From the IMG/VR virus record IMGVR_UViG_648276671_000011: a DNA stretch of 4,392 nt; one strand, 5' to 3'. Origin of the DNA: a virus (Duplodnaviria; Heunggongvirae; Uroviricota; Caudoviricetes). The position numbers and the translations under genes were made by a program. Shown one piece after another: positions 1 to 4,392 of this stretch. Below the pieces are notes generated by a model that ran no database searches, had not been told where the DNA came from, and worked only from the letters and a program-made list of their open reading frames with translations. Each line of letters starts with the position of its first letter. Position 1 is the first letter of the stretch.

Positions 1-149
1 AATCGAAATCGACACCGAAAAATAAAACATCAAGTCATATCAATATATTGCATTGGTGGTGATGACGAATAAAAATGCAAAAACTAGCCTTTTTCCGCGA
101 TGCTCCCGCCCCGTGGCAGGGCACCCCACAAGGAGGACCCGCCATCACT

Positions 150-491
150 ATGGAGGCCATGACCATGACCATGACCATGACCATGACCATGACCATGACC
201 ATGACCATGACCGAGACCGAAGCGCTCGGGATAATCCGCAGTATTACCGGAATCAGCCAGCAGGCTGGCGAACAGGAGGCCACGCAGCCGGACAGCGTGA
301 TAGCCGAAAATTACGCGCGTGTTGTTGCTGAGGTGATGCGCCGTGATGGTATTGAGCTTAACGGCGTGGATATGCGCAACATACGAACCAGAGTCCTTGA
401 GTTGCTGGCATACCGTCGCCGTTCTCAACAACGGAGGGAGAGCGCGAAAAGTACTTACCAGTGGAAGAAGCCGGAACGACTGCGGCGGTAA
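150..491 (+). CDS. Hypothetical small protein (113 aa from ATG150; 138 aa if ATG75) with N-terminal (Met-Thr)9 repeat and a basic Arg/Lys-rich C-terminus
   Basis: ORF-track frame 75..491. AGGAGG at 131..136 lies 13 nt upstream of the in-frame ATG at 150. Downstream sequence (...ARVVAEVMRRDGIELNGVDMRNIRTRVLELLAYRRR...) is protein-like. Three other frames also read through the repeat (53..331 +, 35..283 -, 84..431 -), so strand and frame are not certain. I do not recognise the family. Confidence 0.45.
   Translation: MEAMTMTMTMTMTMTMTMTMTETEALGIIRSITGISQQAGEQEATQPDSVIAENYARVVAEVMRRDGIELNGVDMRNIRTRVLELLAYRRRSQQRRESAKSTYQWKKPERLRR
158..211. repeat. Perfect hexanucleotide microsatellite (CATGAC)x9, with one degenerate unit at 212..217
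   Basis: Directly counted: nine identical CATGAC units, 54 bp. Encodes (Met-Thr)n in the frame of the 150..491 ORF. Confidence 0.97.
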
Positions 492-675
492 CTTGCTGAT
501 ATTCCCGATAACGCAAAATTGCGTTGGCTGGTGGGTGAGTTGCAGATTTGCAACTCGACCATGAAACTACGGAAACTACCCGTAGTTTGGGTAGTAAGAG
601 TAACACCCAGATTTTGGGGCTTACTCGCGATACCCAAATAAAGGGTATCGGTGGAAGAAATATCGTTTCTCATAT

Positions 676-714
676 GTAAGTACCGAGGGCGGAATTCCGC
701 CTTCGGTTACTTAT
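676..714. repeat. Long imperfect inverted repeat (about 17 bp stem, one bulge) centred on the perfect 14-bp palindrome GGCGGAATTCCGCC (688..701)
   Basis: Hand base-pairing: 688..701 is its own reverse complement; flanks 676..687 pair with 702..714 with one bulged T and two G-T pairs. Confidence 0.6.
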
Positions 715-732
715 TGTGCTCATGCACAGGGA

Positions 733-793
733 GGGGCGGGTCAAAATCTCTGTACCCTGACGTCTTCAGGACTGCCCGCCCCATCGATTTTTT
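733..793 (+). terminator. Candidate intrinsic terminator: GC-rich stem GGGGCGGG (733..740) / CCCGCCCC (775..782) with a large loop, then T6 (788..793)
   Basis: 8-bp G/C stem enclosing a ~34-nt loop that has its own small hairpin (CCTGA..TCAGG); T-run starts 5 nt after the stem. The loop is larger than a classic terminator, so this is tentative. Confidence 0.3.
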
Positions 794-1048
794 ATACCCG
801 CGAAAAATGAAAAACGCTTCACGCTGGTGGGCCTGATGCCGATATGGGGAGCCGCATACCGGAGAATATCCACCAGCACGGCAACAGCAGAATAGCCCCG
901 ACACAGAAAAACCACGAATATGGGGTTTTTGTTATGGCATGGTCATGATGACCGCCCCTGCTCTGAATGGTGGAAATCACCACGCAGATCATCCACCAGC
1001 TTCATGACGGATAGCCGGAAAATGATAATGATTAAAGCGTGTTGATCT

Positions 1049-1075
1049 TTGTTCGCGGTTGTTCGATATTGTTCG
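1049..1075. repeat. Three copies of TTGTTCG at exact 10-bp spacing (1049, 1059, 1069)
   Basis: Direct reading: tTTGTTCGcgg TTGTTCGata TTGTTCGtga. One helical turn between copies, as in phased binding-site arrays. Confidence 0.6.
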
Positions 1076-1081
1076 TGAAGC

Positions 1082-1105
1082 GGTGTAGTTAATGGTGTAG
1101 TTAAT
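1082..1105. repeat. Perfect 12-bp tandem duplication GGTGTAGTTAAT x2
   Basis: 1082..1093 is identical to 1094..1105. Confidence 0.85.
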
Positions 1106-1115
1106 ATCACTGTTT

Positions 1116-1143
1116 TTGACGGGCTTGTTATTTGCAACATAAT
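1116..1143 (+). promoter_or_regulatory. Candidate sigma70 promoter upstream of clpS: -35 TTGACG (1116..1121), 16-bp spacer, -10 CATAAT (1138..1143)
   Basis: Hexamers read by eye; would give a ~130-nt 5' UTR before clpS. An inverted repeat TGATAG-N4-CTATCA (1178..1193) lies inside that leader. Not validated. Confidence 0.3.
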
Positions 1144-1278
1144 GAAAAATAAAGACTAATTAACTAAATGATATAAATGATAGTTATCTATCATGTGGAG
1201 TAGATTGGTCAGGCAAATAAGCTCTTGTCAGCGGCAGGGCGTTCTGCCGATAACCGTAACCGAAGATGATAACTGACA

Positions 1279-1629: not shown

Positions 1630-3906
1630 ATGCTCAATCAAGAACTGGAACTCAGTTTAAATATGGCTTTCGCCAGAGCGCGCGAGCACCGTCATGAGTT
1701 TATGACCGTCGAGCACTTGTTACTGGCGCTGCTCAGTAACCCATCTGCCCGGGAGGCGCTGGAAGCGTGTTCTGTGGATTTGGTTGCGCTCCGTCAGGAA
1801 CTGGAAGCCTTTATTGAACAAACCACACCCGTTCTGCCTGCCAGTGAAGAGGAGCGCGACACACAGCCGACGCTGAGTTTTCAGCGTGTACTGCAACGTG
1901 CGGTCTTCCATGTCCAGTCCTCCGGTCGCAATGAGGTTACCGGTGCAAACGTTCTGGTCGCTATTTTTAGCGAACAGGAGTCGCAGGCGGCATATCTGTT
2001 GCGTAAACATGAAGTCAGCCGTCTCGATGTGGTGAGCTTTATCTCTCATGGCACGCGTAAAGACGAGCCGACACAGTCTTCTGATCCTGGCAGCCAGCCA
2101 AACAGCGAAGAACAAGCTGGTGGGGAGGAACGTATGGAGAATTTCACGACGAACCTGAATCAGCTTGCGCGCGTGGGAGGAATCGACCCACTGATTGGTC
2201 GTGAGAAGGAGCTGGAGCGTGCTATTCAGGTTCTCTGCCGTCGCCGTAAAAACAACCCGCTGCTGGTGGGGGAATCTGGTGTCGGTAAAACCGCGATTGC
2301 GGAAGGTCTTGCCTGGCGAATTGTTCAGGGCGATGTGCCGGAAGTGATGGCTGACTGTACGATTTACTCTCTCGATATCGGTTCTCTGTTAGCGGGCACA
2401 AAATATCGCGGCGACTTTGAAAAACGTTTTAAAGCGTTGCTCAAGCAGCTGGAGCAGGATACTAACAGCATCCTGTTTATTGATGAGATCCACACCATTA
2501 TCGGTGCGGGTGCAGCCTCTGGTGGCCAGGTCGATGCGGCTAACCTGATCAAACCGCTGCTCTCCAGCGGTAAAATTCGCGTAATTGGTTCGACAACCTA
2601 TCAGGAGTTCAGCAACATTTTCGAGAAAGACCGTGCTCTGGCGCGTCGCTTCCAGAAAATTGATATTACTGAACCGTCGATCGAAGAAACTGTTCAAATC
2701 ATCAATGGCCTGAAACCGAAGTATGAAGCGCACCACGACGTGCGTTATACCGCAAAAGCGGTGCGTGCAGCGGTAGAGCTGGCGGTGAAATACATTAACG
2801 ATCGTCATCTGCCGGATAAAGCCATTGACGTTATCGACGAAGCGGGCGCTCGCGCACGCCTGATGCCGGTAAGCAAACGCAAGAAAACCGTTAATGTGGC
2901 GGATATTGAGTCCGTGGTGGCCCGTATTGCGCGCATTCCAGAGAAGAGTGTTTCGCAGAGTGACCGCGATACCCTGAAAAACCTCGGCGATCGCCTGAAA
3001 ATGCTGGTCTTCGGTCAGGATAAAGCCATTGAGGCGCTGACTGAAGCCATTAAGATGGCGCGTGCAGGTTTAGGTCACGAACATAAACCGGTCGGTTCGT
3101 TCCTGTTTGCAGGCCCTACCGGGGTCGGGAAAACAGAGGTGACGGTACAGCTTTCGAAAGCTTTGGGCATTGAGCTTCTGCGCTTTGATATGTCCGAGTA
3201 TATGGAACGCCATACCGTCAGCCGTCTGATTGGTGCGCCTCCGGGATACGTTGGTTTTGATCAGGGCGGTTTGCTGACTGATGCGGTCATCAAGCATCCA
3301 CATGCGGTGCTGCTGCTGGACGAAATCGAGAAAGCGCACCCGGACGTGTTCAATATTCTGTTGCAGGTGATGGACAACGGTACGCTGACCGATAACAACG
3401 GACGCAAAGCGGACTTCCGTAACGTGGTATTGGTGATGACCACCAACGCTGGGGTACGAGAAACTGAGCGTAAATCGATTGGTCTTATCCACCAGGACAA
3501 CAGTACCGATGCGATGGAAGAGATCAAGAAGATCTTTACGCCGGAGTTTCGTAACCGTCTCGACAACATTATCTGGTTCGATCATCTCTCCACCGACGTG
3601 ATCCATCAGGTAGTGGATAAATTCATCGTCGAGTTGCAGGTTCAGTTGGATCAGAAAGGTGTTTCTCTGGAAGTGAGCCAGGAAGCGCGTAACTGGCTGG
3701 CCGAGAAAGGTTACGACCGGGCAATGGGCGCACGTCCGATGGCGCGTGTCATCCAGGACAACCTGAAAAAACCGCTCGCCAACGAACTGTTGTTTGGTTC
3801 GCTGGTGGACGGCGGTCAGGTGACGGTTGCGCTGGATAAAGAGAAAAATGAGCTGACTTATGGATTCCAGAGTGCACAAAAGCACAAGGCGGAAGCAGCG
3901 CATTAA
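1630..3906 (+). CDS. clpA: ClpA, ATP-dependent Clp protease ATP-binding/unfoldase subunit (two AAA+ modules), 758 aa
   Basis: Translation from ATG1630 ([24 protein letters not shown]...) matches E. coli ClpA as recalled. Walker A motifs GESGVGKT and GPTGVGKT are present. GGAGG at 1619..1623 sits 6 nt upstream of ATG1630; the ORF-track start at 1615 is a TTG and is less likely. Confidence 0.97.
2122..2136 (+). promoter_or_regulatory. clpA: Internal ribosome-binding site GGGGAGG (2122..2128) plus in-frame ATG (2134..2136, Met169) for the shorter ClpA65 form
   Basis: SD-like GGGGAGG 5 nt upstream of internal Met169 codon (seen). Internal initiation at Met169 producing a truncated ClpA is established for E. 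coli ClpA. Confidence 0.6.
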
Positions 3907-4118: not shown

Positions 4119-4206
4119 GTTCACTGCCGTACAGGCAGCTTAGAAAGCCAACCGAAAGAAAAACTCGATTTTTATACCGTTCACTGCCGTACAGGCAGAT
4201 AAAATG
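4119..4206 (+). CRISPR. Orphan type I-F mini-array: repeat 1 (4119..4146, GTTCACTGCCGTACAGGCAGCTTAGAAA), 32-bp spacer (4147..4178, GCCAACCGAAAGAAAAACTCGATTTTTATACC), degenerate terminal repeat 2 (4179..4206)
   Basis: 28-bp repeat with the Cas6f-type hairpin core CTGCC-GTACA-GGCAG matches the E. coli/Yersinia I-F repeat consensus from memory. Second copy is identical for 20 nt then degenerates. Spacer length of 32 is typical. No cas genes in the window. Confidence 0.85.
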
Positions 4207-4249: not shown

Positions 4250-4267
4250 TGGCGGTGAGGGGGGATT
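4250..4267 (-). pseudogene. 3'-terminal fragment of a tRNA-Ser(GGA)-like gene (acceptor 3' strand plus part of the T-arm); the rest of the tRNA is not present downstream
   Basis: TGGCGGTGAGGGGGGATT is the reverse complement of ...AATCCCCCCTCACCGCCA, the 3' end of E. coli tRNA-Ser (serW/serX type) as recalled. From 4268 the sequence no longer follows the tRNA, and no complementary acceptor 5' strand (CCTCACC on +) is found in the next 125 nt. Confidence 0.5.
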
Positions 4268-4392
4268 GACTCGCTTCGCTCGCCCTGCGGGCAGCCCACT
4301 CACTGTGTTCGTGGTCTGTCCAACTGGCTGCGCCAGTTGTCGAACCCCGGTCGGGGCTTCTCGATCCCCCCTGGAGTGCAATATGCGAAAAA

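Follow-up and report, generated by a model that had tools for sequence, protein, structure and literature searches.

A microsatellite of start-codon hexamers in the last gene of an EcCICFT073-like phage satellite

The island and its chromosomal neighbourhood

The DNA analysed here, referred to as the window, is the whole 4,392-nucleotide stretch of the IMG/VR virus record IMGVR_UViG_648276671_000011. Its right two thirds comprise clpS (1279-1599), clpA (1630-3906) and, beyond them, the orphan type I-F CRISPR/serW region known from E. coli. From position 1 to about 1194, the window holds the end of an element of about 10.5 kb, which is inserted between yljB/cspD and clpS. The attR core of this island, a 22-bp direct repeat common with attL, occupies 1173-1194, as determined by blastn against island-free K-12 and the related locus L001; the match between island-free K-12 and the window does not begin until 1173. 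The initial annotation had called nine perfect copies rare in enterobacterial chromosomes; the locus is the end of a mobile phage satellite and not ordinary chromosomal DNA.

According to annotated genomes, the island carries genes for an integrase, an HTH regulator, an Icd-like protein, a DUF4222 protein, a primase, an SSB protein, a homolog of major capsid proteins, a homolog of head-decoration proteins, a second HTH regulator and a "terminase small subunit" with a Phage_Nu1 domain (E=1e-22). The last gene of both the island and its packaging module is the open reading frame (ORF) at 159-491. In L001, L002, L003 and L007, on which the architecture was tested, the gene order, the size of about 10 kb, the element's own att direct repeats and the lack of tail and lysis genes were all as in the EcCICFT073 type. 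Judged by its sequence, the element is an EcCICFT073-type phage-inducible chromosomal island (PICI). EcCICFT073 itself encodes a capsid homolog (c1499), a decoration protein (c1500) and RppA (c1503), and it possesses two cos sites (PMC6092414, PMC6739421). The likeness to such PICIs (Fillol-Salom 2018 and 2019) lies in the gene architecture, the two lambda-like cos sites, the size of about 10.5 kb and the dedicated att sites; these papers do not mention the last gene or the repeat found here. The upstream Nu1-family protein, whose sequence matches no PDB chain, comprises 180 aa, compared with 144 aa for RppA. The two 49-kb regions of CFT073 that were examined contain a lambda-like prophage and ordinary chromosome; the PICI is not located there.

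Between the last gene and attR lies a gene-free stretch of 680 bp with a 33-nt imperfect inverted repeat (577-647), a palindrome (682-707) and a hairpin (733-790). The palindrome is perfect, GC-rich and built around an EcoRI site; it resembles a terminator with a weak T tail. The hairpin has the arms GGGGCGGG...CCCGCCCC, and a T run comes after it. The gene-free stretch has no match in Rfam. Some 730 bp beyond the repeat array described below, at 938-956, there is a partial, inverted copy of the repeat motif (CATGGTCATGATGACCGCC); it contains a 10-nt perfect complement of CATGACCATG and may be due to chance. Just inside attR, two tandem copies of the 12-mer GGTGTAGTTAAT (1082-1105) and TGTTCG motifs occur within 1055-1105. 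Similar motifs are found just inside attL near int (L001, about 2380-2520), and they are probably arm-type integrase binding sites.

On the chromosomal side of attR, ClpS and ClpA differ from their K-12 counterparts by the substitutions T77I and N136S, respectively, and, at the DNA level, identity over clpS-clpA reaches only about 97%, both with K-12 and with other island-carrying strains. The orphan array between clpA and serW consists of two plus-strand type I-F repeats (4119-4146 and 4179-4206; Rfam CRISPR-DR4, 50.1 and 29.7 bits) and a single 32-nt spacer (4147-4178), which is entirely unlike the K-12 spacer at the same place. An RtT-like element follows on the minus strand (4250-4385), scoring 44.9 bits, just below the Rfam gathering score of 45; in related genomes, RtT sRNAs are annotated at that site beside serW.

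A cos-like site upstream of the last gene

On the minus strand, the heptamer GGGTCCT at 134-140 is identical to cosQ of lambda (NC_001416). A cosN-like core, ACGGGGCGGGAGCATCGCGG, is located 19 nt downstream of it at 95-114, also on the minus strand. In lambda, GGGTCCT is followed by 20 nt and then by ACGGGGCGGCGACCTCGCGG across the cos junction. The composite cosQ-cosN pattern matches the window once and none of 200 shuffled sequences. Within the cosN-like site, ACGGGGCGG and TCGCGG are kept, and the 12-nt end region reads GGGCGGGAGCAT versus GGGCGGCGACCT in lambda. The first cos site of the island lies upstream of the Nu1-like gene (L001, 11203-11250, plus strand), and its cosQ-cosN sequence is nearly identical to that of lambda. 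The Nu1-like gene lies between the two sites, which point in opposite directions. The site in the window is cos-like and, by comparison with lambda, would be the second, inverted and diverged lambda-like cos site of the island. The presence of two sites in the L001-type island agrees with the published statement of two cos sites for such islands.

The cosQ heptamer overlaps an apparent AGGAGG on the plus strand (131-136). This motif was considered as a Shine-Dalgarno sequence for the ATG at 150 and rejected because of the overlap with cosQ and because that ATG is not conserved.

The hexamer array

The repeat follows the cos-like site at a short distance. Tandem Repeats Finder (TRF) delimits the array to 157-212, with a period of 6 bp, 9.3 copies, 100% matches, no indels and a score of 112. 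In coding register, it is a perfect (ATGACC)9 on the plus strand at 159-212, as established by TRF, a regular-expression count (n=9, where n is the number of units) and alignment with alleles of three and six units. ATGACC is CATGAC in another register, and the nine perfect CATGAC hexamers of the initial annotation were recovered by both TRF and the count. The span of 150-217 proposed for them includes the array itself but is slightly wide at its edges, by ATGGAGGCC at the 5' end and GAGAC at the 3' end; the immediate flanks are GGAGGCC on the 5' side and GAGACC on the 3' side. Each ATGACC unit supplies an in-frame AUG and a Thr codon, with a TGA in the +1 frame. The probability of a chance match of the 48 extra bases is negligible.

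An independent metagenome contig (L029, SKDZ01001421.1) also carries nine perfect units. It is 99.75% identical to window positions 1-1211, with two mismatches (SNPs) and one 1-nt indel. Because this contig has nine units too, the n=9 allele is real and not an accident of assembly.

Two copies of another hexamer, GACCGA (Thr-Glu-Thr-Glu), adjoin the main array at 213-224 on the plus strand. The database allele P0161 has three copies (MTETETE...), and GACCGA may be regarded as a second, shorter slippage-prone unit abutting the first. A match of Rfam mir-598 over the repeat was dismissed as noise, its 22 bits falling far below the gathering score of 69.

Reading frame and extent of the gene

Four long overlapping ORFs cross the repeat, as had been stated in the initial annotation. 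On the plus strand, they read Met-Thr (75-491) and His-Asp (53-331); on the minus strand, they read Val-Met (35-283) and His-Gly (84-431). The third plus frame has a TGA in every unit. The Met-Thr frame is open in every allele, including the diverged alleles L003 and L004, and third-position changes in it are about twice as numerous as those at positions 1 and 2. In L003 and L004, stops interrupt the His-Asp frame, and the minus-strand ORF of 115 aa contains two stops in either allele. Calculated over 11 distinct DNA alleles, pS is 0.235 and pN 0.036 in the conserved core (approximately residues 26-71 of the 94-aa form, from TQPDS), giving a pN/pS of 0.15. This ratio is 0.66 over the N-terminal 28 alignment columns and 0.31 in the basic C-tail. 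By these measures of conservation, Met-Thr is the real coding frame. The slippage-prone, in-frame (Met-Thr)n tract that had been proposed for an uncharacterised small protein thus belongs to the constrained frame, and the His-rich and minus-strand readings offered beside it do not hold.

The conserved part of the gene is the 94-aa core at 207-491 on the plus strand (MTETEALG...ERLRR, stop at 489-491), which was delimited by a match to the phrog_1561 profile, homologs, pN/pS and the PGAP annotation. PGAP gives the extent of 207-491 to a hypothetical protein, WP_024187550 / WP_001710151, in L001/L002. The protein WP_001710151 (94 aa) is annotated alike for two, three and six units, because PGAP picks the last AUG. 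Other gene callers predict products of 96, 98, 100 or 122-133 aa at the same locus.

The 113-aa product of the initial annotation, from the ATG at 150, and the whole ORF of 138 aa are over-extended. The ATG at 150 is ACG in L004 and L016, and positions 95-140 are cos-like. The 5' extension of the longest ORF (75-158, plus strand; MQKLAFFRDAPAPWQGTPQGGPAITMEA), delimited by allele comparison, is missing or different in L003, L004 and L010-L013. It overlies a DNA site, since the cos-like site occupies 95-140, and it is most likely not translated, as far as can be read from these alleles.

The protein family phrog_1561

The ORF product matches phrog_1561 over its full length (E=7.5e-51, residues 1-94 versus all 93 positions of the profile), and 913 homologs of it were retrieved from the database. 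Members of the family mostly have 93-97 aa and usually begin with MTE(A/T/S)E..., encoded by ATG ACN GAA/G. The family is narrow, with only 37 representative clusters among 1.84 billion proteins. A tblastn search of 50,697 phage genomes returned one weak partial match only, to a Klebsiella phage. In the genome-contig collection, no relative was found, and a scan for the exact pattern with at least six units gave no match. From its distribution in these collections, phrog_1561 appears to be a satellite-specific family that sequenced phages hardly ever carry.

No significant match emerged from Pfam, NCBIfam or PADLOC, although PADLOC showed a weak one to BrxA (E=0.012); a phmmer search of the PDB with the ORF product found no match, and there were no significant structural neighbours. 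The AlphaFold2 model has a pLDDT of 68 and helices at 3-14, 29-46 and 56-86, with the tract preceding the first of these, a short and poorly constrained N-terminal helix. A eukaryotic-looking protein of 2175 aa with a signal peptide and repeats (P0141) aligned weakly with residues 29-61 in 11 places, at 32% identity; the summed E-value of 3e-14 is probably an artefact of repeat summation.

In capsid-forming relatives of the island, the ATGA start of the gene overlaps the stop of the upstream packaging gene. This upstream gene encodes TerL in L012/L013, which sit at the same clpS site, and its product in L010/L011 is a DUF1441 protein. Such an overlap has the form of a classic translational-coupling junction. 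The position of the gene as the last in the packaging module, its coupling to terL in relatives and its location next to the cos-like site here suggest a packaging-associated or satellite-specific accessory role of the protein. For EcCICFT073, each gene beyond ori was expressed singly, and only rppA blocked lambda (PMC6739421).

Copy-number variation

Because relatives begin with MTE..., the unit can be recognised as codons 1 and 2 of the gene itself. The tract had been placed inside the 5' end of the ORF, which is correct but understated, since the unit consists of the start codon of the family and the Thr codon that follows it. Other alleles begin with MTMTE (ATGACA ATGACC in L004, ATGACC ATGACC in L016), MTITE or MTRM(S/T)E, and expansion beyond two units is confined to the allele background of the window.

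The copy number varies across related genomes, as the initial annotation had proposed to examine: n=1, 2, 3, 4, 5, 6 and 9 were found in otherwise near-identical islands. L001 and L007 have three units, L002 has six and L008 has two, with otherwise identical flanks; the window and L029 have nine. Between L002 and L007, identity is 99.72% over 25 kb. Among complete E. coli genomes, of which only about 2% have the repeat-bearing allele, six units were counted in 2, five in 4, four in 19, three in 30 and two in at least 5; this census covers the 60 best of 95 full-length matches, and n was derived from match length. Of 5,426 complete E. coli genomes, not one has nine units. The IMG/VR satellites add ten alleles with n=2, three with n=3 and one each with n=4 and n=5, and the protein database contains alleles with one to five units.

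Flanks that are 100% identical to those of the window carry three, four or five units, and a second flank haplotype (99.0% identical) carries three or four. The occurrence of several copy numbers on one flank haplotype implies repeated, independent changes. Sets of near-identical strains share their copy number (E14/E16/E32, TUM18530/TUM18780 and NDM3/NDM6); two SNPs and one indel in 1.2 kb separate the pair with nine units. The shared copy numbers, including n=9, imply that, over short periods, the tract is not hypervariable, and no change in n was seen within a single clone. On this comparison of alleles, it is polymorphic between lineages and not wildly unstable. NDM2 (n=3) and NDM3 (n=2) were considered as a clonal slippage pair and discarded because their islands differ.

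Origin of the tract and the start of translation

The preferred explanation, and a likely one, is a slipped-strand microsatellite that arose from the first two codons (ATG ACC) of a real satellite gene and is probably near-neutral. Tandem amplification of ATG ACC (Met-Thr) by slipped-strand mispairing would generate the tract, and self-pairing in single-stranded DNA would be expected to favour slippage. Since the unit has 6 bp and carries an in-frame AUG, neither gaining nor losing units can shift the frame or remove the start. A change in n would alter only the number of Met-Thr dipeptides before the conserved MTE... and the number of AUGs after GGAGG. The added dipeptides fall where the protein is least constrained, so variation in n is probably tolerated and near-neutral, although near-neutrality is itself an assumption.

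A Shine-Dalgarno-like motif, GGAGG, is present at 152-156 on the plus strand and may serve in initiation. It lies 2 nt before the first AUG (159), 8 nt before the second (165) and 14 nt before the third, and its context, GGAGGCC-ATGAC, is also found in the approximately 82%-identical allele L004 and in the IMG/VR alleles. By prediction, the region of the motif is mostly paired, with an unpaired probability of about 0.2 at all n. The true start in the n=9 allele would be one of the AUGs at 159-207. Initiation would occur mainly at the second AUG, which spacing rules favour because it lies 8 nt after GGAGG, giving an (MT)8 extension at n=9. No credible promoter was detected across the tract; a 9/12 consensus match starts inside it, and the number of such matches is no higher than in shuffled sequences.

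A one-unit change keeps the frame, and there is an AUG in each unit, so the tract does not behave as a phase-variable ON/OFF element. The initial annotation had described a length polymorphism rather than an on/off switch, and this description is borne out by the variation in n.

Alternative explanations

Two alternatives concern the array itself and its reading frame. Sequencing or assembly error might have swelled the copy number, which would fit the absence of nine units from the complete E. coli genomes and of the exact 138-aa ORF from a collection of 15 billion proteins; such an artefact is scarcely credible, because contig L029 has exactly nine perfect units between slightly different flanks and because a 54-bp array is well inside read length. 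A real product with (His-Asp)n on the plus strand or (His-Gly)n on the minus strand, metal-binding-like as in Salmonella yohM/rcnA, was suggested by the length of both ORFs in the window and by the identity of the CATGAC hexamer to the STTR5/SE5 VNTR in YohM, a Ni/Co resistance protein (PMC3174255, PMC2040188, PMC5183578). This idea has virtually no chance of being correct. Stops interrupt both the His-Asp frame and the 115-aa minus-strand ORF in the diverged alleles, purifying selection acts in the Met-Thr frame, and Pfam matches are sub-threshold only, such as ZrgA in the (His-Asp)n frame with 16.9 bits against a cutoff of 27.4. Conservation refutes the His-rich readings.

Two further explanations assign a function to the length of the tract. 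One connects it with packaging: tract length, or a hairpin or cruciform formed by the tract, would modulate cos cleavage or packaging termination at the inverted cos-like site. The repeat begins at 159, 18 bp from cosQ (134-140), its DNA is quasi-palindromic, and it would be at the last-packaged end if the inverted site were used. L003 and L004, however, have the same cosQ and no expanded repeat, the repeat keeps the codon register of a constrained ORF, and cosB, the specificity element, lies on the opposite side of cosN. Moreover, one of the two cos sites of EcCICFT073 is dispensable (PMC6092414), and the site in the window is the diverged one, all of which makes a role in packaging very improbable. 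The other explanation is a translational rheostat, a selected contingency-type element in which the CAUG hairpin and the number of AUGs, both set by n, tune the protein dose. CAUG is palindromic, a feature absent from the initial annotation, and (CAUGAC)n is predicted to fold into a ladder of 4-bp CAUG:CAUG stems; the RNA of positions 120-260 has a predicted folding z-score of -3.3. The minimum free energy of the repeat alone is 0 for up to two units, -2.8 for three, -8.2 for six and -16.0 kcal/mol for nine, and every AUG except the middle one is predicted to be base-paired. In the model, freeing the ribosome footprint at the second AUG costs about 8.5-10 kcal/mol at n=2-4, rising to about 12 kcal/mol at six or more units. 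Against this, the modelled effect levels off at about 2-3.5 kcal/mol, a few-fold change, from n=6 on, and most natural alleles have two to four units, where the hairpin is negligible. The rheostat is unlikely on balance, and a strong RNA switch was rejected because the footprint-opening cost saturates at about +2-3.5 kcal/mol. A selected rheostat of dosage or N-terminal length on the PICI, quantitative and not ON/OFF, is likewise quite unlikely. A probably near-neutral microsatellite of start-codon units remains the preferred explanation.

Comparison with known repeats

Phase-variable contingency loci of Haemophilus and Neisseria have units of 1, 2, 4, 5 or 7 bp, and changes in their copy number shift the frame or the promoter spacing and switch expression ON or OFF. 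The tract resembles them in being a slippage-prone repeat at a coding 5' end beside alternative AUGs. It differs in its 6-bp unit, which keeps the frame and brings an AUG each time, so that there is no OFF state.

Closer in sequence is STTR5/SE5, whose unit is read as His-Asp in yohM. It shares the same hexamer with the tract (GACCAT / ATGGTC = CATGAC), in frame within a coding sequence. In contrast, the unit is read here as Met-Thr, holds the start codon, and lies at the extreme N-terminus of a protein encoded by a mobile phage satellite; the two genes have no homology. In Salmonella enterica yohM (rcnA), STTR5/SE5 is a multi-allelic VNTR of 4-15 copies used as an MLVA marker (PMC3174255, PMC2040188, PMC5183578), positioned between two domains of the chromosomal Ni/Co efflux protein (PMC5183578). 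The YR2794 VNTR of Yersinia ruckeri, (CATGAC)4-15 (PMC6070765), has the same unit and a similar range of copy numbers and was compared by unit and range alone. A search of the E. coli MLVA literature with all 12 rotations of the unit revealed no scheme with the satellite locus, only STTR5/SE5 and YR2794. In-frame hexamer VNTRs, even with CATGAC, are already well known in enterobacteria. Two things are unusual here: the initiation codon is part of the unit, and the repeat resides in a phage satellite.

Implications

The microsatellite adds no new principle, and no new mechanism is demonstrated by it. Its practical consequences concern annotation and typing. Gene callers are inconsistent about the start of this one locus, with products of between 94 and 133 aa; the last-AUG choice of PGAP hides the polymorphism entirely, and the upstream ORF extension called by many pipelines is really a cos-like site. 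The tract also provides a ready-made VNTR marker for tracking this satellite family.

If the rheostat were true after all, n would tune the amount or N-terminal length of a packaging-module protein and would thereby affect the way the satellite exploits its helper phage or blocks it. For the biology of these satellites, the analysis flags phrog_1561 as a conserved, apparently satellite-specific gene that stands last in its module and is coupled to terL in capsid-forming relatives.
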